64,000 nt of DNA. Origin: Bacilli bacterium (lineage in GTDB: Bacteria; Bacillota_I; Bacilli_A; RFN20; UBA1709). Positions within the stretch are counted from its first letter, which is position 1. Each line of letters begins with the position of its first letter. The notes under the pieces are model-generated. The model was not told the DNA's origin, made no database searches, and saw only the letters and a list, made by a program, of their open reading frames with translations. Both the position numbers and the translations under genes were made by a program. The stretch is taken from the NCBI GenBank assembly GCA_050949315.1, contig JBMNFL010000001.1, forward strand, positions 928,001 through 992,000, read 5' to 3'. This document shows, piece by piece, positions 1,003 through 17,127 of this stretch.

Positions 1003-4000
1003 TTAAAGTTCAATACTTTCTTCAAAAAGAACAGTTTCGCTGTCATCATTTTTGATACCAATAAAGCGGAATTGGTAAATATAAGGAGCGGGTGTAGGTG
1101 GGGCCGATAACACCTGCTCATCGGTTAAGATGTTGCCAACAATATTTTGGACAATAGGATTTTCAGGATCTCTAGAATCCACTAATAAAACCTTGTAACT
1201 AACATATTGTTCTTGATAGTCACTATGACTATCAACTTTATAATATTTATTAGGATCTTGAGGTTTTTCATAGATAGAGACTATAGTTATTTTTTCAGTG
1301 TGATGTTCGTTATAGTAAACAAGGCGACCATCTTTCTGAATTTCAAAACGATAGAGGCTATCTTCATTTAAAATATTGTAGTTAACTATAATTTGTACTA
1401 ACTCGCCAGATCCATCTAACATATAGGCGATATTGGCATAATCATCAGAAATTTCATTGGGGTCGCTAGTTACCGCTTCAATTGTTAGTTCACTTAAAGG
1501 TGTTGTCTCGCCAGCCGGGATTAAAAGCAGGGTGATGGGCGAGAAATTACTGGCTTCCGTTTCAATAGTGAAGTGTATTTCTTGATCACTCATTGAAATC
1601 TCGCTTTGTTGATAACTAAAGAGACTGATAGAATCTTCGTATAAGATTGCTTGTGAATTATCGTGTTTAATTCCAATTAATTCGAAAATATAGGAATCGG
1701 GGCTGTAGTCGTTGGGATTTAAGACTTTTTCGCCACTCCAGTTTTCACCTAGTTGAATTAAGGGTTCAGAAGAAGGACTGTGTTCTCCTGTTAGTCTAAC
1801 AGCATAACTCTTATACTGATCCTGATAATCGCTATGTTCAATTTGATAATAGACATTACTATCATCTTTCTTGGTTGAGAAACTGACATTGGTCACTTTT
1901 TCAGTATGGGAGTCAAAACTGATTAAGACTTCATCGTTCTCTGCCTTACTTAGTTGGAAAGATAAAGGTGTATTGGGCGGTAAGGGGTAGTAAAAGCTCA
2001 GCTGCAAGAGATTATCATCGACATTAGGAACAACGGTTACGTTACAATCACCATTTACGATAGTGTTAGACTCTGAACTATCAATATTCATTACAATCTC
2101 AGTAGCCGAAATTGTTAGAATTGATTTTAAAGGAACAAAGTCATAATAAGAGAGGTTGATAGTAAAACTAACACCATTATTGCCAACATTTAAATCATCA
2201 AGGCGATAACTATCAATATATATTGTTTCTTCATATAAAGGTATTTCAAAGCTATCTTCTCTACTGATGCCATAAAGCTTATAAACATATTGCCAAGCAG
2301 GGAAACTATCAAGTTGAATTACCTGCTCATCGCTGATCGAACCTTCTATGGATAAGGGATAGGTTTGGGGAGTAGCTCCGGCTTCATTGACTATGCTAGT
2401 CAAAGTAGCAGTGTAGCCTTGATAAGAATTATTATAATCACTGGTACTGATTTGATAATAGAAGTTTTCATTATCGCCGGTTTTACGGTAAAAAGTTGCC
2501 GTGGTGTCTTTTTCGGTTCTAAAACTCAATTCATAGAGTATAGTTGAACCTCTTTGTAAGATAAAGTTATATTCGCTATCTGCCTGTAAGTAATACTGGA
2601 ATTCTAGGGTAACAAGATCATCTTGAATATTAGGTGAGATACTCAGACGGTTATCCTCATTAAAAAGGGTATTATCTTCAGGACTATCAATGTTAAAGAC
2701 ACTTTCAAATCCTTCCCCAGTTAATCTTGCCACCATTGGTTCGAAATCTTGATAGGGCGGCACATCGATGATGAGATAAGCATCGCTTGAAGTGATACTT
2801 AGCATCTTGGCCCTTATTGGCATAAATAAAACTTGTTCAAGTAGTAGCAGTTCATCTTGTAGGTTGTCTCTTAGGCGCCCAAAGAGTTTAAAGTTGTATT
2901 GAGGGGCGTTAAAGGTTGTTAGACTCAAAGCTTGTTCAGTATGGACGTTAGAACTAGTAAGTGTGAAATTTTCAATGTAAGGTGTACCAGTTGTAACTTC
3001 GCTTATTTGTACGCGATAATCAAGAAATCTTTGCTGATAATCACTGGATTCAATTTGATAATAGAAGTTATCGTTATTGCTTGTTTTACGGTAGAATTCC
3101 ACAGAAGTTTCTTTTTCGCTTCTAAAATTCTTTTGATATAAAAGCTCGTTACCGCGTTTTAAGCGGAAAGTATAATTAGTGTCGGCAGTTAAACCAAAGA
3201 AACTGACATTTACAGTCAGAAGATTGTTTTCGCCAGGCGGATTTAGACTTATTGAAGCAAAGCTATTCGAAACTTGAGGCTGGTTAAGATTGTTAAGGGC
3301 AATCGTTTTTTCTTCGCTTCCTTTAAGCAAACTAAAAATAAGCGGGGCAAAGTTTTCCCTAGACAAATCTAGAGTTGTAGATAAGGAGAAATCATTATAA
3401 GTGAAATCTTGAGCAATTACCTTATCAATATTTACCGTTTCTCTTAGTAGTTCAAATTCATCGCCACTATCACGCAGAGTAGCATGGAGACTGATTTCAT
3501 ATTGCCAAGCATTATAGATAGTAAGGTCAATTTTTTGTTCATCAGTAATTGAACCGCTAACATCTAAATAATGTTCAGTTTGACTACTGGCAGTTTCTGT
3601 TAGTTTAACTTTATATCCCGCATATCTTTCTTGATAGTCGCTAAGGTCAAATTGATAATAGAAATAGTTATTATCACCACTTTTATGATAAAGGTTAACA
3701 CTTGTTGTTTTTTCAGTTCTGATATCCCGTTCTAGAATCACACGATTTTGTTTAGTTAATTTAAAGTGGTAGAGTGCATCAGGTGTTAAATTCTCACAAC
3801 TAAATTGGATTAAAATCTTATTTTCTTGAGTATTGACATGCAGGAAAACCCAAGAATTTTGGGTACTATATTCAGTTACATTAAGATTTTCAATGTCAAA
3901 GTGTTCATTTAAATTCTCACCACTTAAGTCAAGGCTTAAAGTTGCGAAAGTATCACAGGGAAGTTCAAAAGAAAGTTGCAAGTCTTGATCATTTATTTCT

Positions 4001-5280
4001 AAATAGACGAGTCGACCTTGATCAAAGGTTAATAGTTCTTCATAAAGGCTAATCTCACGTTCGTAAGTTTGACCAAAGCCATGCACATAACTAAGTCCAA
4101 TTAAGACAAAACGATATTGACTCTCGTCATAGTCAGCAAGCGTAATCTTTTGCTCGCTAAAGATATCGCCAACAAGAGGAAGTTCATAATCTTGTTCGTC
4201 AACCAAACTGACAAGTTTTACCTTGTAAGCATGGAAACGTTTACGATAATCACTCATTGAAATTTGGTAATATAGATCAGGGTCATTATCCTTATAATGG
4301 AACTCAACCTTTAATTGTTTTTCGGTATGGAAGGTTTCCTGATAGAATTTGCGTTTGTTTCTCTGAACTTGGAATTTATAGACGGAATCTTCTTGTAAAT
4401 TGTTATAGTAAAGATTTAAAAGCAAACGATTTTCGCTAGCTAAAGGGCAGACTTCTAGAGAACTGTTTTCTTGTGAGAAACTCTGTTCTTCATTGCTTTC
4501 AACTTGGAAAGTACTAAAGATATTACCGGCTTGATCAATTAAATCAAGACTTAAAGTTTTGAAATTTGAATTAGCAAGTTCAAAGGTGAAACTTAAATCT
4601 TTATCGGTAATTTCTAGATTACTGACGTGATAATTACCTGTTTGCACTTGCTCCTCATAGATGGTTGTGCCACCCAAATTCCCTTTGTCAATGACTTTAA
4701 AAGTATAAAGGTTGTTAGCTTCCAGCCCAGTATAAAAACAATAAAAATTAACGGTTTCTAAATCGGTTTCTGTACGCACATTATCTAAAAGAGTGTAAAA
4801 AGAATCACTGCTTTCAAAAGAAGTGATGGCCGTTTCTTTTTTGTGATAATCATTACCAAAAGAAATAAGCAAATTAGGATTCTCATAGTAATCCATTTCT
4901 AGATTAATTTGATATTCGTTAAGTGAGAGTTCACTAAAAACTTTTTTAATTTGAGGCGAGTTTAAAGCGGTAACAGCAGCTGTGGATACGACAACCGAAG
5001 CCACAGCAGCGTAGGAAACTAATTTACTGATGCCACTTGCTCCGGCTTCGTGAGCCTTGGCACCTCTTATGCCACCGCCTCTTCTATGGGTTTTCTTACT
5101 AAAAAGTTCGCTGTTTTCTTCATCTGTTTCTTTGCGATTTCGTTCATGTGAAGAACGATATTCTCTTTTCGAACGAAAATTATTTTCATCACTATAATTA
5201 TGTTCATGGTAAGGTCTATTTTCATAACCAAAGCGGCGATGGTCGGCTTCTTTTCGCTGGTAATTATTATTGTTTTCCAC
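1003..5280 (-). CDS. Large membrane-anchored protein with six ~200-aa tandem FN3/Ig-like repeats
   Basis: 1425-aa ORF, GTG start with GGAGGTG RBS, charged N-terminus, single hydrophobic segment (LVSYAAVASVVVSTAAVTAL), recurring TEK...YYQ...SDY and L..(D/N)..Y.F motifs. Confidence 0.8.
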   Translation of the reverse strand: MENNNNYQRKEADHRRFGYENRPYHEHNYSDENNFRSKREYRSSHERNRKETDEENSELFSKKTHRRGGGIRGAKAHEAGASGISKLVSYAAVASVVVSTAAVTALNSPQIKKVFSELSLNEYQINLEMDYYENPNLLISFGNDYHKKETAITSFESSDSFYTLLDNVRTETDLETVNFYCFYTGLEANNLYTFKVIDKGNLGGTTIYEEQVQTGNYHVSNLEITDKDLSFTFELANSNFKTLSLDLIDQAGNIFSTFQVESNEEQSFSQENSSLEVCPLASENRLLLNLYYNNLQEDSVYKFQVQRNKRKFYQETFHTEKQLKVEFHYKDNDPDLYYQISMSDYRKRFHAYKVKLVSLVDEQDYELPLVGDIFSEQKITLADYDESQYRFVLIGLSYVHGFGQTYEREISLYEELLTFDQGRLVYLEINDQDLQLSFELPCDTFATLSLDLSGENLNEHFDIENLNVTEYSTQNSWVFLHVNTQENKILIQFSCENLTPDALYHFKLTKQNRVILERDIRTEKTTSVNLYHKSGDNNYFYYQFDLSDYQERYAGYKVKLTETASSQTEHYLDVSGSITDEQKIDLTIYNAWQYEISLHATLRDSGDEFELLRETVNIDKVIAQDFTYNDFSLSTTLDLSRENFAPLIFSLLKGSEEKTIALNNLNQPQVSNSFASISLNPPGENNLLTVNVSFFGLTADTNYTFRLKRGNELLYQKNFRSEKETSVEFYRKTSNNDNFYYQIESSDYQQRFLDYRVQISEVTTGTPYIENFTLTSSNVHTEQALSLTTFNAPQYNFKLFGRLRDNLQDELLLLEQVLFMPIRAKMLSITSSDAYLIIDVPPYQDFEPMVARLTGEGFESVFNIDSPEDNTLFNEDNRLSISPNIQDDLVTLEFQYYLQADSEYNFILQRGSTILYELSFRTEKDTTATFYRKTGDNENFYYQISTSDYNNSYQGYTATLTSIVNEAGATPQTYPLSIEGSISDEQVIQLDSFPAWQYVYKLYGISREDSFEIPLYEETIYIDSYRLDDLNVGNNGVSFTINLSYYDFVPLKSILTISATEIVMNIDSSESNTIVNGDCNVTVVPNVDDNLLQLSFYYPLPPNTPLSFQLSKAENDEVLISFDSHTEKVTNVSFSTKKDDSNVYYQIEHSDYQDQYKSYAVRLTGEHSPSSEPLIQLGENWSGEKVLNPNDYSPDSYIFELIGIKHDNSQAILYEDSISLFSYQQSEISMSDQEIHFTIETEASNFSPITLLLIPAGETTPLSELTIEAVTSDPNEISDDYANIAYMLDGSGELVQIIVNYNILNEDSLYRFEIQKDGRLVYYNEHHTEKITIVSIYEKPQDPNKYYKVDSHSDYQEQYVSYKVLLVDSRDPENPIVQNIVGNILTDEQVLSAPPTPAPYIYQFRFIGIKNDDSETVLFEESIEL

Positions 5281-9102: not shown

Positions 9103-9224
9103 TGCACAGGCCTCCTGCTTTTCTAAATGATAACATAAATGATTTTAAAATTGAGAGAAAAATTGACAGGAACTTGGTTAGCCCATAAAATAATAGAGTA
9201 AATAAGCGCTTGAGAGGGAAGAAA

Positions 9225-10118
9225 ATGCAATTATATGGCTGGAACTTTGAATTAGAAATATTGCGGTCTTTGGAAAATGTACGCAGTGATTTTTTTAATG
9301 GCCTTTTTGAAATGATAACAATGATAGGCGAGGAGACCATTTTTATTATAGTTGCTGCTCTCTTCTATTTTGTGATAGATAAGAAGTTTGGAGAAAAACT
9401 TCTTTACACTCTCTGTTTTGTCAATGCCTCAACGATGGTTATTAAGAATTTGACTAAAATCCCAAGACCCTTTGTTGCCGATAGTAGTTTACAACCAATA
9501 AGAGTAGAAACAGCAACAGGTTATTCTTTTCCTAGTGGCCACACAGCGATGGCCAGTGGCTGGCTATGTACAGTTGCTCGTTATTTTAAGAAAAAATATC
9601 TTCTTTCAATCGCTGTCATTATAAGTTTTCTTGTTGGGTTTTCTAGAGTCTATCTAGGAGTGCATTATCCGAGTGATGTTATTGCTGGTCTTATTATTGG
9701 TTTAGTTGGTGGTTTAGGTCTAGCATATCTTTTTGATGAAGCCAAAAACAAAGGACTTGTGGCCTTAGCTTCTACTTTGGTTTTTCTGCCTTTTATTCTG
9801 CATTTTAGTTTTAATCCTGATCCCCAATACGCGGATTTTTTTAAGACCTATGGTGTCATTCTTAGTTTTGGAACCGCCTTTTATTTTGAAGAACATTTTG
9901 TCAATTTTGATAACAAAGGGCCTTTGTTTAAGCGTTTGTTGCGATTGATTATTGGTATAGCTTTTGCCTTAGGTATAAAAATTGGGCTCAAGGCTTTATT
10001 TGACTTAATATCCGGTTCTTTGTTGGTAAACCAGTTTTTAGATCTTTTACGTTACTTCATTTTAGGTTTTGCCACCTTAGGGCTTTATCCCTGGTTTTTT
10101 AAAAAACTTGGCTTCTAG
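9225..10118 (+). CDS. PAP2-family membrane lipid phosphatase
   Basis: K...RP, SFPSGH and SRVYLGVHYPSDV motifs; multiple TMs; TTGACA-17-TAAAAT promoter at 9163-9191. Confidence 0.9.
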   Translation: MQLYGWNFELEILRSLENVRSDFFNGLFEMITMIGEETIFIIVAALFYFVIDKKFGEKLLYTLCFVNASTMVIKNLTKIPRPFVADSSLQPIRVETATGYSFPSGHTAMASGWLCTVARYFKKKYLLSIAVIISFLVGFSRVYLGVHYPSDVIAGLIIGLVGGLGLAYLFDEAKNKGLVALASTLVFLPFILHFSFNPDPQYADFFKTYGVILSFGTAFYFEEHFVNFDNKGPLFKRLLRLIIGIAFALGIKIGLKALFDLISGSLLVNQFLDLLRYFILGFATLGLYPWFFKKLGF

Positions 10119-12429: not shown

Positions 12430-13011
12430 GTGAAACCTTTGACGATGTTAGTTCCTGATGATGAACTCATCGAACAAATAAGGTTTAAAAATGATTTGGC
12501 ATTGGATTTGTTGTTGACTAGGTATGAAGGTTTTATAAATAGTTGGGTTGAAAAAATTTTTCTTAAGAAGAAAGATCATTTAGAACGTGAAGATATGTTA
12601 CAGATTGCGCGCATCACACTTTGGGATTGTCTTAATTGTTATCAGGCAAATAAAGGCAATTTTTACGCCTATTCAAAACGCTGCGTTCGCAATGCTTTAG
12701 TAGCCCATTATCAAAATTATTTACAACAGACATCTTTTATTTCTTTGGATGATGACAAGACCCGTTTTTTAGCGGAAACTAGCCTAAAATTTACTTTAGA
12801 TAATCAGCCAAAAAATCAAGAAACTAAAGAGTTGCTCGCTAAATTATTAACAAACAAAAAAATGGGGTCAATAGAAAGAGAAATATTGAAATATCGCCTG
12901 TTGGGTTATAGTTATAAAGATATCGCACAAATTTTGGGAATAACTGTTAAAAAAGTTGATAATCTTTTGGTAAAGATTAAGAAATTGGCGCGTTATCCTA
13001 AAGTAAAATAA
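12430..13011 (+). CDS. Sigma-70 family alternative sigma factor (SigH-like)
   Basis: Region 2 (EDMLQIARITLWDC) and region 4 HTH (GYSYKDIAQILGITVKKVDN); occupies the conserved sigH position. Confidence 0.8.
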   Translation: MKPLTMLVPDDELIEQIRFKNDLALDLLLTRYEGFINSWVEKIFLKKKDHLEREDMLQIARITLWDCLNCYQANKGNFYAYSKRCVRNALVAHYQNYLQQTSFISLDDDKTRFLAETSLKFTLDNQPKNQETKELLAKLLTNKKMGSIEREILKYRLLGYSYKDIAQILGITVKKVDNLLVKIKKLARYPKVK

Positions 13012-13048: not shown

Positions 13049-13075
13049 ATTTAACTTAAAGATGGAGGACTTTTT

Positions 13076-14266
13076 ATGGATATATTTGCTAAATGCCGTG
13101 TTCCAGAAGCCGTTCACGATACTAAGAAAGCGGGAATTTATCCTTATTTTCACTATTTGAGTTCTAAGCAAGACACTGAAGTCATTATGGAAGGTAGAAA
13201 AACCATAATGATTGGTTCTAATAATTATCTGGGTTTGACTTCCGATCCTCGCGTTATTGAAGCGGGCATGAAGGCTTTAGAAAAATATGGCACTGGTTGT
13301 TCGGGAAGTCGTTTTCTGAACGGCACTTTAGATATTCATTTAGACTTAGAACAAGCCTTAGCTAAATTCCTTCGTAAGGAAGATGTGGTAACTTTTTCAA
13401 CGGGCTTCCAATCAAATTTAGGTATTATCAGTGCGGTAGTCGGTTTTAATGATTACATTGTTTGTGATAAAGAAAATCATGCGAGTATTTATGATGGTGC
13501 GAAGTTAAGTTACGGTAGGCTTGTTCGTTATGAACATGGCGATATGGAAGATTTAGAAGCCAAGTTGGCAGGTTTAGACTTAGAAAGATTTGGGGCGATA
13601 ATTATCACGGATGGCGTTTTTAGCATGAGTGGTGATATCGCTAAGTTGCCTGATATTTGTCGCTTAGCTAAAAAATATGGCGCCCGAGTTATGGTTGATG
13701 ATGCCCATGGTCTTGGGGTGTTAGGAAAAGGAGGCCGGGGCACGGCTGAACATTTTGGCCTTGAAGAAGAAGTCGATATTATTATGGGGACTTTTTCTAA
13801 ATCGCTCGCTAGTCTTGGTGGCTATATGGCGGCTAGCAAAGAACTCTGTGATTATGTCCGTCACACCTCTCGTCCTTTTATCTTTAGTGCTAGTATAACT
13901 CCGGTTTCTGTAGCTTGTGCTCGTGAGGCCTTAAGAATTATTGAGGCTGAGCCAGAAAGAGTAAAGAGACTTTTAGATCTCAGCCAATATATGCGCGATG
14001 GTTTACGTAAAGTTGGTGTTCCTATTATTGAGGCGGAAACACCGATTGTCCCTATTTATGTTTACGATGATTTAAAGGCTTTTGAGGCTTGTAAATTGCT
14101 TTTAGAGCGTGGGGTTTATGTCAACCCTGTCGTTTCGCCAGCTACACCAGTAGGTATGGCCTTACTAAGGACCAGTTATACAGCGACTCATACCTATGAG
14201 CAATTAGACTATGCCATTAAACAAATTAAAGAAGTTCTCGTTATTTTAGGTGTTATTAATGACTAA
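13076..14266 (+). CDS. spt: PLP-dependent alpha-oxoamine synthase, most like serine palmitoyltransferase
   Basis: GIYPYF, GSNNYLGL, GTGCSGSRFLNGT, NHASIYDG, DDAHGLG, GTFSKS (PLP Lys), RPFIFSAS and RTSYTATH; pattern matches Bacteroidota SPT as I recall it better than BioF or Kbl. Confidence 0.75.
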   Translation: MDIFAKCRVPEAVHDTKKAGIYPYFHYLSSKQDTEVIMEGRKTIMIGSNNYLGLTSDPRVIEAGMKALEKYGTGCSGSRFLNGTLDIHLDLEQALAKFLRKEDVVTFSTGFQSNLGIISAVVGFNDYIVCDKENHASIYDGAKLSYGRLVRYEHGDMEDLEAKLAGLDLERFGAIIITDGVFSMSGDIAKLPDICRLAKKYGARVMVDDAHGLGVLGKGGRGTAEHFGLEEEVDIIMGTFSKSLASLGGYMAASKELCDYVRHTSRPFIFSASITPVSVACAREALRIIEAEPERVKRLLDLSQYMRDGLRKVGVPIIEAETPIVPIYVYDDLKAFEACKLLLERGVYVNPVVSPATPVGMALLRTSYTATHTYEQLDYAIKQIKEVLVILGVIND

Positions 14267-15044
14267 AGTAGTCGTAATCACAGGGGCCACCTCAGGTATT
14301 GGTGAGGCCACGGCCCTTTTCTTAAAAGATAAAGGTTACTGCGTCTATTCTTTGGCTAGACGAGTTAAAGATATCGAGGGTATCAACTATTTAAGCTGCG
14401 ATGTTACTGATAAAGAAGCCATCGCTAAGGCATTAGCAACCATTTATCAAAAAGAGGGCTCTATTTTTGCCTTGATTAATAATGCCGGTATTGGTATTGG
14501 TGGTGCTTTTGAAACGACCGATGAAGAAGAGGTTAGAAAAATTCTAGCCGTCAATCTTGAGGGGCCTTTAAATGCCAGTCAACTAGTTATCCCCTATCTT
14601 AAAAAAAGTCAGGGAAGAATTATCAATATTGGGAGTATCGCTGGTGAAATTCCCATTCCTTTTCAAACACATTACTCCTTAACAAAAGCTGGGCTTGCAA
14701 TGTTTAGTCAAACGCTAGCCTTGGAATTAAAACCATTAGGCATTAAAGTTTCCTGTGTTTTACCAGGCGATACCAAAACCTCTTTTACTAACAATCGGGT
14801 CAAACAGATGGCTAGCGAAGATTATGGGGAAAGAATAAGTCGATCTTTAAAACGGATGGAGAAAGATGAAAAAAATGGAGTCGAGCCAATAAAGGTAAGT
14901 AAAGTAATTTATAAATGTCTAACGAAGAAAAATCCTCCAGTTAAGGTGGCCGTGGGCTTTGGTTATAAATGTATTTGTCTATTAAATCGCTTATTGCCTA
15001 CTAGATTTGTTAATTGGGTTGTATATCGTTTATATGCTAAATAA
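14259..15044 (+). CDS. Short-chain dehydrogenase/reductase, putative 3-ketodihydrosphingosine reductase
   Basis: TGATSGIG, NNAGIGIGG, YSLTK catalytic motif, PGDTKTSFT; ATG at 14259 overlaps the spt stop by 8 nt. Confidence 0.7.
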   Translation: MTKVVVITGATSGIGEATALFLKDKGYCVYSLARRVKDIEGINYLSCDVTDKEAIAKALATIYQKEGSIFALINNAGIGIGGAFETTDEEEVRKILAVNLEGPLNASQLVIPYLKKSQGRIINIGSIAGEIPIPFQTHYSLTKAGLAMFSQTLALELKPLGIKVSCVLPGDTKTSFTNNRVKQMASEDYGERISRSLKRMEKDEKNGVEPIKVSKVIYKCLTKKNPPVKVAVGFGYKCICLLNRLLPTRFVNWVVYRLYAK

Positions 15045-15097
15045 GAAGCTATGCTTCTTTGCTAAATTTTAATATCTAGTTAAGCGTGCTAGATATA

Positions 15098-15127
15098 TTG
15101 ACAAAAAGCTCAATTTCATGGTAATAT
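15098..15127 (+). promoter_or_regulatory. Sigma-A promoter of rpmG-secE-nusG
   Basis: TTGACA-18 nt-TAATAT with extended TG. Confidence 0.6.
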
Positions 15128-15149: not shown

Positions 15150-15299
15150 ATGCGCGAAAAAGTGATTTTGGTTTGTAGTCAATGTCTCTCGCGGAATTAT
15201 CGGGCGACACGCCAAAAATATGACAAGCAAAACCGTCTAGAAGTTATGAAGTTTTGTAAAAAGTGTAATGCTCACACTTTGCATAAAGAAAGCAAATAG
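15150..15299 (+). CDS. rpmG: 50S ribosomal protein L33 (zinc-binding form)
   Basis: Not in track; read manually as [49 protein letters not shown]. Confidence 0.95.
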
Positions 15300-16194: not shown

Positions 16195-17127
16195 ATGTTT
16201 TTAGATATTAGTTCTTATATTCAAAATGAAACTGCGATGTGGGTTTTGATTGGCGTATTGGCTTTGGTTTTATTGATCTGTGTCATTAAGTGTACGGCTG
16301 ATGGCATAGTCAAATGTCTTTTCAATCTGGCTTATTTTGCCCTTTTTATTGTCATGATTGCCTTTTTAGGGCCACTGGTGGCTTCTTGGTTAAAGCCTAT
16401 TGGTTTTTGGGAGAATCTTTTATCAATCAATGCAAGTCTAGAATCGGCTCTGAGTTTTATTGATGCCGACCTAGCTTATTTTATTTGTGCTATTTTAATT
16501 ATTTTAGTGGCCTTCATGATAATCGTCTTTATTTTAAATCGTGTTTTCCGGAAGGTTAAAAATATTAAAAACAAACAAAGTCGTTTTGTCGGCTTCATCT
16601 ATGGCTTTTTCATTTTCTTTATTTTATCGGCGGCTTTTTTGGAACTTTTCACTTCGCCTTTTTTGGTAAAAGGTGGCAAACAGTTAGTTGATAAAGCCTC
16701 ATATCTTAAACTTTATCATAATCATGTAACTGAACCGGTTTTTGAAATTTTTGATAAAGAAGGTGTTCCTTTTAGCGTTGATGGGGCCTTTGTTGCTGGT
16801 TATAGCGGAGCCAAGGACAATAAGAAAGTATATTTAGAGGCATTTAAGCAATATGAAACTTATATGCTGAATTCTAACGAATATGTAAAGACCTTAAAAG
16901 ATGGTAGTAATTATAATGAAGAAAAAGTTAATAACGCGGCCTTAAATTATTGCCGAGTTGTTGATGTTGCCACTTGTTCCACTTCTTTTGGTTATGCTAA
17001 ACTGAAGGACACCCTAAAAAATTCGGCCAATGATTGGTATGCTAAAATACCTAAGGAATTATTAAGTGGCGAAACTAAAACCCAATTAGAACAAGCTTTT
17101 AATCGTTTAGGGGTTTCTTTAGAGTAA
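16195..17127 (+). CDS. Hypothetical membrane protein (CvpA-like N-terminal 4-TM region plus soluble C-terminal domain)
   Basis: Four hydrophobic segments with DGIVKCL and SRFVGFIYG resembling CvpA; own TGTATAAT -10 and GGGAG RBS. Confidence 0.6.
   Translation: MFLDISSYIQNETAMWVLIGVLALVLLICVIKCTADGIVKCLFNLAYFALFIVMIAFLGPLVASWLKPIGFWENLLSINASLESALSFIDADLAYFICAILIILVAFMIIVFILNRVFRKVKNIKNKQSRFVGFIYGFFIFFILSAAFLELFTSPFLVKGGKQLVDKASYLKLYHNHVTEPVFEIFDKEGVPFSVDGAFVAGYSGAKDNKKVYLEAFKQYETYMLNSNEYVKTLKDGSNYNEEKVNNAALNYCRVVDVATCSTSFGYAKLKDTLKNSANDWYAKIPKELLSGETKTQLEQAFNRLGVSLE

Follow-up and report, generated by a model that had tools for sequence, protein, structure and literature searches.

The window analysed here, a stretch of 64,000 nucleotides from the genome of a Bacilli bacterium, carries on its forward strand a pair of overlapping genes that, judging from their sequences, probably make a sphinganine-type base and act as a two-gene cassette. 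The first gene encodes an alpha-oxoamine synthase (AOS) of the serine palmitoyltransferase (SPT) type, and the second encodes a classical short-chain dehydrogenase/reductase (SDR). In the proposed pathway, the synthase, a homodimeric enzyme of the Bacteroidota SPT type, would condense L-serine with a long-chain acyl thioester to give 3-ketodihydrosphingosine and CO2, and the SDR, translationally coupled to the synthase, would then convert this ketone to sphinganine (dihydrosphingosine), with NADPH as the probable reductant. The acyl donor would most likely be an acylated acyl carrier protein (acyl-ACP), formed from scavenged fatty acids by way of a fatty-acid kinase (FakB/DegV) and PlsX. The cassette has entered this lineage between sigH and rpmG, and it appears to move as a unit among Bacillota. 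We infer the substrates and cofactor of the enzymes, their product and its later fate, and also which molecule donates the acyl chain. The two genes and their translation signals are listed below, with the basis of each assignment in brackets.

13064..13068, + strand: Shine-Dalgarno-like GGAGG, 7 nt 5' of the synthase ATG (read from the sequence)
13076..14266, + strand: alpha-oxoamine synthase of the CFB serine-palmitoyltransferase type, 396 amino acids (open reading frame list, family scores, tree)
14248..14252, + strand: Shine-Dalgarno-like AGGTG within the 3' end of the synthase gene, 6 nt 5' of the SDR ATG (read from the sequence)
14259..15044, + strand: classical SDR, 261 amino acids, candidate 3-ketodihydrosphingosine (3-ketosphinganine) reductase (family scores, motifs, linkage)

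The two genes overlap by 8 nt, ATGACTAA, and each has a Shine-Dalgarno-like site (the GGAGG and the AGGTG above); the original prediction had given the pair a ribosome-binding site of its own. The second open reading frame is listed as 14250..15044, and an internal ATG at 14259 gives a protein of 261 residues. This ATG was taken as the start of the SDR because the homologues begin at the residue that it encodes. The motifs that had been read from the proteins, GIYPYF, GTGCSGSRFLNGT, NHASIYDG, GTFSKS and FIFSAS in the synthase and TGATSGIG, NNAGIGIGGAFE, IPFQTHYSLTK and PGDTKTSFTNNR in the SDR, are all found in the translations.

Family, active site and phylogeny of the synthase

The synthase matches the Pfam family Aminotran_1_2 (E=5e-61). 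Among the NCBIfam models, it scores best on NF047600, the CFB-type SPT, with 541 bits (cut-off 640). The other scores are 410 bits on the betaproteobacterial SPT model (cut-off 500), 405 on the Kbl model NF005394 (460), 398 on the BioF/Kbl-related TIGR01825 (535.4), 376 on the BioF model TIGR00858 (426.45), 336 on the Kbl model TIGR01822 (493) and 335 on the alphaproteobacterial SPT model (670). On NF047600, two Bacteroidaceae proteins pass with 679 and 675 bits, and the protein of Haploplasma axanthum (H. axanthum) scores 536. The synthase is 50-52% identical to the two Bacteroidaceae SPTs that pass the cut-off, 37% identical to E. coli Kbl and 29% identical to E. coli BioF.

The best solved structure for the synthase is that of SPT from Sphingobacterium multivorum (S. 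multivorum; 3a2b/8guh), with 436 bits. The alignment covers residues 12-387 of the synthase, 376 residues, with a single gap of one residue. The next structures, those of Thermus AOS, Sphingomonas SPT and Kbl, score about 300 bits. The active-site residues of S. multivorum SPT, as described by Ikushiro et al. 2023 (PMC10196870), were mapped onto the synthase by alignment, and 14 of the 15 are identical. The identical pairs (SPT/synthase) are Asn52/N49, Gly80/G77, Ser81/S78, Phe114/F111, His138/H135, Ser185/S183, Asp210/D208, Ala212/A210, His213/H211, Thr241/T239, Ser243/S241, Lys244/K242, Ser273/S271 and Ala274/A272. K242 is the lysine that binds pyridoxal phosphate, and R365 is conserved too. 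The sole changed site is Met271, which is I269 in the synthase and which contacts the substrate by its main-chain carbonyl.

The same region of the protein bears on the idea that the pair makes capnine-type sulfonolipids, in which case the synthase would be a cysteate fatty acyltransferase (CFAT; SulA/CapB) and the SDR a 3-ketocapnine reductase. The chemistry and the gene types would be the same. As far as the consulted parts of these papers go, CFAT/SulA falls within the SPT arm of the family (PMC13692747, PMC9304779), and a 3-ketocapnine reductase has been described from human microbiota (PMC11211663). A lysine at the position of SulA Lys281 marks SulA, where SPT has alanine, according to the part of Radka et al. 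(PMC9304779) that was available. Position 272 of the synthase is the SPT-like Ala, and the SulA-type lysine is missing. With the solved CFAT structure the score is 230 bits, compared with 436 for SPT, and we consider a sulfonolipid product very improbable.

Five positions discriminate between SPT and Kbl. The synthase and the Bacteroidaceae SPTs have G, S, A, S and A at these positions (G77, S78, A210, S241 and A272 in the synthase), whereas E. coli Kbl and a Kbl-scoring protein from a metagenome-assembled genome (MAG) have S, V, S, G and N. The motif contrast given in the original prediction for the two kinds of enzyme is likewise present in the alignment, where GTGC(S/A)GSRFLNGT and YPYF are found in the Bacillota and Bacteroidaceae proteins, in contrast to GFGMASVRFICGT in E. 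coli Kbl.

Two phylogenetic trees were made. The first, a quick tree with the model LG+G4, has 109 rows of full-length matches, and the second, more careful tree has 44 rows chosen from the 109 and used LG+C20+F+G4 with ultrafast bootstrap/SH-aLRT supports. The SPT references are Bacteroidaceae MAG proteins labelled by their score on hidden Markov models, two of them above the SPT cut-off (679, 675). The other references are two MAG proteins, one above the Kbl cut-offs and one above the BioF cut-off, E. coli Kbl, E. coli BioF and a Kbl-type paralogue from a relative in the window's own family, genome G006 (TIGR01825 562 bits, above the cut-off). In the careful tree, the synthase is held in an SPT-like clade with support of 100/99, which comprises the Bacteroidaceae SPTs (100/100) and a Bacillota clade (85/89). 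The Bacillota clade, which includes the synthase of the window and in which only Bacillota-type genomes are found among the rows examined, is the sister branch of the Bacteroidaceae SPTs (union 96/93) and is not nested in them. A small adjoining group is composed of proteins from Zixibacteria, Thermodesulfobacteriota, Methylomirabilota and Trueperaceae. The Kbl clade (100/97) and the BioF rows lie outside the SPT-like clade, and the 109-row tree agrees. Clustering with BioF or Kbl, the outcome that would have refuted the original prediction, was obtained in neither tree.

Two other assignments can be weighed with these data and with searches of the genome, which is a single contig of 1,011,443 bases with an estimated completeness of 92.85%; at about 93%, failed searches are not proof of absence. 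The synthase could be a Kbl, or a bifunctional Kbl/BioF, with the SDR as a short-chain threonine dehydrogenase, so that the pair would interconvert threonine with glycine and acetyl-CoA. The scores of 405, 336 and 398 bits on the Kbl and BioF/Kbl-related models are in its favour, and kbl and tdh are classically adjacent, as in E. coli tdh-kbl. It is made scarcely credible by the position of the synthase inside the SPT-like clade and outside the Kbl clade, by the SPT residues at all five discriminating positions, by both Kbl scores being under their cut-offs and by the identity of 37% to E. coli Kbl compared with 52% to a Bacteroidaceae SPT. Moreover, the Kbl-type paralogue of G006 adjoins a Zn-type tdh-like gene and not this SDR, and no tdh was found in the window's genome. 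The tdh-like gene of G006 (G006:C13:3142-4168) is itself split into matches at 3142-3636 and 3641-4168, and may be frameshifted or broken.

JGI and GenBank records call relatives of the synthase '8-amino-7-oxononanoate synthase', which would make it the BioF of biotin synthesis, and the score of 376 bits on TIGR00858 points the same way. That score is under the bioF cut-off, the synthase stands apart from the BioF rows in both trees, and its identity to E. coli BioF is 29%. There is no match for bioB in the genome and none for bioD in 12 genomes (the window's and those of 11 relatives), and the conserved partner of the synthase is an SDR, a kind of enzyme that biotin synthesis does not use. 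The probability that we give to a role in biotin synthesis is close to nil.

The reductase and its linkage to the synthase

The SDR matches the Pfam family adh_short (E=5e-47) and has TGATSGIG at residue 8, NNAG at 74, GSIAG at 125 (S126) and YSLTK at 139 (Y139-x3-K143). It has therefore the TGxxxGxG cofactor motif and the catalytic Ser-Tyr-Lys of a classical SDR, with 'ARR' after strand 2. Its best NCBIfam model is NF049977, KdsR, with 234 bits, and the next family scores 186. KdsR is also the top family for the seven other cassette SDRs scored (7/7, with one tie). Four Bacteroidaceae MAGs bear SPT; two of their four SPT proteins were scored, and both are over the SPT cut-off. In three of these MAGs, the best KdsR candidates score 292-299 bits, which is also under the KdsR cut-off of 400, and in the fourth there was no KdsR candidate at E<=1e-30. 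The cut-off seems narrow. The SDR is 32-36% identical to the KdsR-like proteins of the Bacteroidaceae MAGs. An SDR tree of 81 rows places E. coli YbbO and a PRK06182-type SDR in the same clade (77 rows, support 98) as the cassette SDRs and the KdsR-like proteins of Bacteroidaceae.

An SDR is present in 76 of the 87 loci that have a synthase of the Bacillota clade; among the 87, two pairs are the same genomes counted twice, and 3 of the 11 loci without an SDR end at contig ends. The synthase gene mostly comes first, overlapping or abutting that of the SDR, while the SDR gene comes first in 4 loci and the two are divergent in 7. When the view was widened to +/-7 kb, all 42 loci examined from the window's class had the synthase and 41 had the SDR. 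No third conserved gene was found in these stretches, any other gene being present in at most 16 loci. By contrast, none of 11 Bacteroidaceae loci has an SDR near SPT within the stretch examined.

The surroundings of the pair in the window comprise the following features.

12430..13011, + strand: left flank, sigma factor like ECF (extracytoplasmic function)/SigH factors (Sigma70_r2, Sigma70_r4_2; synteny)
15043..15059, + strand: inverted repeat AAGAAGC-TAT-GCTTCTT across the SDR stop codon, possible weak terminator (seen in the sequence)
15098-15127, + strand: promoter-like TTGACA-18-TAATAT with TG, ahead of rpmG (promoter scan)
15150..15299, + strand: right flank, rpmG, ribosomal protein L33, 49 amino acids (synteny)

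The pair does interrupt a conserved gene order, as had been noticed, since 14 of 17 loci from relatives read trmH-sigH-rpmG-(secE)-nusG, where no more than a short spacer separates sigH from rpmG. The remaining 3 have trmH-sigH and then no rpmG within the stretch examined. Among the loci examined, the pair lies between sigH and rpmG in the window's genome only. The claim that the pair has a probable promoter of its own is not supported, because the promoter scan gave 14 promoter-like sites compared with 10.2 +/- 3.5 in shuffles. The closest + strand promoter-like site 5' of the synthase is at 12934-12963, with 9/12 positions matched. The repeat at 15043..15059, which has no T run, was not called by the terminator scan, and the base composition of the pair shows no contrast with its flanks. 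Further downstream, at 16195-17127 (+), a multi-pass membrane protein of 310 amino acids is encoded between nusG and rplK, genes that are usually adjacent. It has a weak match to Colicin_V/CvpA (28.2 bits, just under the cut-off).

Elsewhere, the cassette is found at other sites. In the relatives G005 and G010, sigH-rpmG is uninterrupted and the cassette is located at another place, and the flanks of the window's pair have nothing in common with those in G005, G007, G010 or G042. In 16 Acholeplasma-type loci, the pair adjoins rpsL-rpsG-fusA. In H. axanthum (G278, L164 8197-11785), it lies between rpoC, which is accompanied by two ABC/FtsX genes, and rpsL-rpsG-fusA-tuf; genes for an FNT-type transporter and a DAGK_cat lipid kinase come after it. 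Such a kinase is a neighbour in 3 of the 42 loci; we take DAGK_cat to be the Pfam family that also holds sphingosine and ceramide kinases. In the synthase tree, the window's protein groups with those of G005, G007 and Clostridia MAGs, and the synthase of G010, from the same family, groups with Izemoplasma-like and Acholeplasmataceae proteins. Since the tree cuts across genome groups and the insertion sites differ, these sequence comparisons suggest that the two-gene unit has moved repeatedly among Bacillota.

A PAP2-family membrane protein of about 300 amino acids is encoded at 9210-10118 (+) and passes the gathering score of PAP2_C, a sphingomyelin-synthase-like C-terminal model, with 29.7 bits. 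It was considered as a head-group transferase linked to the cassette, and full-length homologues were found in 9 of 11 relatives of the family. Because most of the relatives that bear PAP2 lack the cassette and have the PAP2 gene in the same position near trmH-sigH, the link was rejected in this genome. PAP2 homologues lie directly 5' of the synthase in two Acholeplasmataceae genomes (L166 8193-9188 (-); L197 4881-5909 (-)), and the homologue in G005 (C34:38918-39639) has an in-frame TAA.

Traces of the pair were found in public sequencing runs. All sampled words of 13076-15044 are present in 14 DNA runs from 11 studies, some of which may be the source of the assembly. They are labelled landfill, anaerobic digester, bioreactor or plain 'metagenome', and no gut run is listed. 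These runs are non-gut, unlike the rumen or gut origin of many of the Clostridia that carry the pair. Six RNA runs from bioreactor sludge have 7-34% of the words. Contigs from four bioreactor metatranscriptome runs match at 100% identity over 13229-13405, 13966-14306, 14638-14996 and secE-nusG. One of the RNA-run contigs, 14116-14306, bridges the overlap between the synthase and the SDR, and in the four runs no contig covers sigH or the junction between sigH and the synthase. These contigs are compatible with transcription.

Host cell, acyl donor and product

Neither MraY nor a penicillin-binding protein (PBP) transpeptidase was matched in the genome, and the host appears to be wall-less, a state that the original prediction had raised. 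There is no match for FabF in the genome, where the only ketoacyl-synthase match is a thiolase. Besides the SDR of the pair, no SDR was matched in the genome at E<=1e-10, so that no FabG was found either. No AMP-binding enzyme, that is, no acyl-CoA synthetase, was matched in the genome. The search for ACP that had been proposed gave a single protein of 74 amino acids, encoded just past the end of the window, at 992.9 kb of the genome, and about 52 kb from the synthase. PlsX and DegV/FakB are present in the genome. From this gene content, the organism looks wall-less and dependent on imported fatty acids, which would be loaded onto ACP via acyl-phosphate. With ACP, PlsX and FakB present and neither a fatty-acid synthase nor an acyl-CoA synthetase found, the likely donor for the synthase is acyl-ACP formed from fatty acids that the cell scavenges. 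Radka et al. likewise argue for an acyl-ACP donor for bacterial enzymes of the SPT arm (PMC9304779).

In searches of the loci and of the genome, the pair could be tied to no N-acyltransferase and no head-group enzyme. PF13480, used as a stand-in for a ceramide synthase, gave a sub-threshold match of 19.5 bits on a small ordinary GNAT. The product may be the free base, or there may be downstream enzymes of an unrecognised kind. The order of steps in the original prediction, with reduction before N-acylation, is one that we infer only from the type of the reductase, and no N-acyltransferase was found that would complete it.

Several points weigh against the assignment of the pair as SPT and 3-ketosphinganine reductase. 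Both proteins fail the equivalog cut-offs of their best models, the synthase that of NF047600 (541 against 640 bits) and the SDR that of KdsR (234 against 400), and a Bacteroidaceae SDR of another subfamily (PRK06182, 387 bits) scores 236 on the KdsR model. The base of the 77-row SDR clade is without resolution, and KdsR is not separated there from PRK06182/YbbO. The synthase trees comprise no characterised SPT of Proteobacteria, B. thetaiotaomicron or S. multivorum. In about 12 Clostridia loci with adequate flanks, the synthase has no SDR within about 4 kb. There was no candidate for a ceramide synthase, for which the PF13480 stand-in was the only model tried, bCerS and CerR not being searched. 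The contigs from the RNA runs may be DNA carry-over. Finally, the amino-acid substrate is not fixed by the sequence, because S. multivorum SPT accepts Ala, Gly and homoserine.

The case for the SDR as the reductase rests on its linkage to the synthase. The likeness to the Bacteroides reductase in the original prediction survives as to the best-scoring family, and not as to orthology, which neither the score nor the tree provides. The wider claim of an SPT-type synthase with a ketoreductase, together making a sphinganine-type base, is supported to the extent that sequence can show it.

The latitude in the substrate leads to another reading, in which the cassette would make a non-canonical amino-alcohol base. 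The synthase would take alanine or glycine (giving 1-deoxy bases), homoserine or an uncommon acyl chain, and its product would then be reduced by the SDR, with chemistry like that of sphingolipid synthesis but an end product other than sphinganine. S. multivorum SPT converts these three amino acids at low efficiency besides serine (PMC10196870), and the scores under both equivalog cut-offs, the position of the Bacillota clade as a sister (85/89) and not as a nested branch of the Bacteroidaceae SPTs, and the outcome of the limited ceramide synthase search would all be in keeping with such a base. Unusual substrates are nevertheless unlikely, given that the residues that contact the serine carboxylate and hydroxyl, directly or via water (N49, G77, S78, H135, S241 and K242), are identical, and that the sole exception, Met271 to Ile, is a contact through the main-chain carbonyl. 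In addition, H. axanthum, a carrier of the pair, reportedly makes true ceramide phospholipids. A sphinganine-type base made from serine is the reading that we retain as probable.

An extension of it, which we put forward tentatively and hold to be rather doubtful, is that the pair is a self-contained mobile module that would convert scavenged fatty acids, as acyl-ACP, to sphingoid bases without a canonical bacterial ceramide synthase, in wall-less bacteria and in many Clostridia. The end products would be free or phosphorylated bases, or ceramides formed by an undescribed N-acyltransferase. In that case, Bacillota would supply sphingoid lipids on a large and so far unrecognised scale in guts, digesters and sediments.

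Distribution and comparison with known systems

A protein search with the synthase listed 8000 matches. With a threshold of at least 490 bits for a cassette-type synthase among relatives of the window's order, 4 of 60 were positive (G005, G007, G010 and G042), and three of these (G005, G007 and G010) are among the 11 relatives of the window's own family. In an even sample of the phylum, 399 genomes were scored, the window's among them, and 39 gave a match at E<=1e-130. These matches cluster in the families coded f10 (21/30), f9 (6/13), f15 (4/4), f30 (3/3) and f4 (4/42), and the other 25 sampled families gave no match at this threshold. Exact look-ups of ten proteins named three carriers in f10, which are H. 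axanthum, Mariniplasma anaerobium (M. anaerobium) and 'Tenericutes bacterium MZ-XQ', of which H. axanthum and M. anaerobium belong to Acholeplasmataceae. MAG loci with the synthase include Oscillospiraceae, Ruminococcaceae, Christensenella, Lachnospiraceae, Izemoplasmatales and Xianfuyuplasma. Many of the Clostridia carriers are uncultured and come from rumen, human gut and digesters. Two cassette-type synthases have in-frame stop codons, a TAA in G382:C178:9234-10394 and a TAG in G275:C15:137275-138186, where the match is also shortened; each could be a pseudogene or an assembly error.

The original prediction held that sphingolipids are not described in Bacilli or Mollicutes, which is too broad a statement. 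A 2023 review has the entry 'Mycoplasma spp., sphingophospholipid', after Olsen and Jantzen 2001 (PMC10626005). Furthermore, H. axanthum carries the pair. The organism behind the Mycoplasma entry is presumably Acholeplasma axanthum, which is the former name of H. axanthum. Ceramide phospholipids of A. axanthum were reportedly described by Plackett, Smith and Mayberry in the 1970s. Full-text searches, which do not reach subscription journals and supplements, found no paper that assigns the pair in any Bacillota and none that links the H. axanthum pair to its sphingolipid.

Among the closest known systems is that of Bacteroidota. S. multivorum SPT (PDB 3A2B, 8GUH series) has about 395 residues and the same fold family as the synthase, besides the score and the 14 of 15 active-site residues given above, and the motifs YPYF and GTGC(S/A)GSRFLNGT are common to the window's synthase and the Bacteroidota SPTs, its sister clade. 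The window's enzyme differs in its lower score on NF047600 and its place in a separate Bacillota clade. In addition, the Bacillota synthase is in an operon with a reductase, unlike SPT in the 11 Bacteroidaceae loci, and the window's host lacks an outer membrane and gave no match for a fatty-acid synthase. In B. thetaiotaomicron, the 3-ketosphinganine reductase is BT_0972, KdsR (Lee et al. 2022, PMC9278070). Like the window's SDR, it is a classical SDR of about 260 residues with the Gly motif and Ser-Tyr-Lys, and the predicted role of the latter is also directly after SPT. The SDR of the window differs in its score of 234 bits against the cut-off of 400 and in not being separated from PRK06182/YbbO-type SDRs in the tree. 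Furthermore, in B. thetaiotaomicron the locus tags of reductase and SPT, BT_0972 and BT_0870, lie far apart (PMC10865984), whereas the genes of the window overlap.

The Caulobacter-type ceramide pathway has the same first step, and acyl-ACP is likely to be the donor in both, as far as the consulted part of PMC9386255 indicates. Its set of proteins is Spt, ACP, an acyl-ACP synthetase, bCerS and CerR, whereas the window's synthase has 335 bits on the alphaproteobacterial SPT model, and its pair has no adjoining ACP or acyl-CoA/ACP synthetase gene, in a genome with no AMP-binding enzyme matched. The partner in the window is a classical SDR of the KdsR kind, and we take CerR to be a reductase of the epimerase/dehydratase type. 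H. axanthum has the same pair, with 60-61% identity for the synthase and 46% for the SDR, and belongs to the same class of wall-less bacteria. It differs in its family and in the site of the pair, between rpoC and rpsL. The enzymes of the pair are of known kinds. What sets them apart from systems already described is the lineage, the arrangement in one mobile operon, the lack of a recognisable ceramide synthase and a host without fatty-acid synthase.

For a wall-less host that is unable to make fatty acids, the pair suggests how imported fatty acids could be turned into a rigid, hydrogen-bonding membrane lipid. Since Clostridia, whose wall status was not checked, carry the cassette too, it does not imply a function confined to wall-less cells. 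Work on the gut microbiome credits sphingolipids to Bacteroidota, and the relatives of Acholeplasma and the Clostridia that carry the pair are groups not usually counted as sphingolipid makers. If the reading is true, the capacity would extend to 21 of the 30 sampled species of the H. axanthum/M. anaerobium family, to Izemoplasma-like lineages and to many Clostridia, and it would provide a genetic basis for mollicute sphingolipids that are known only from chemistry. The interest of the finding lies in this breadth of distribution among Bacillota and in the cultured carriers, H. axanthum and M. anaerobium, which make the reading directly testable.

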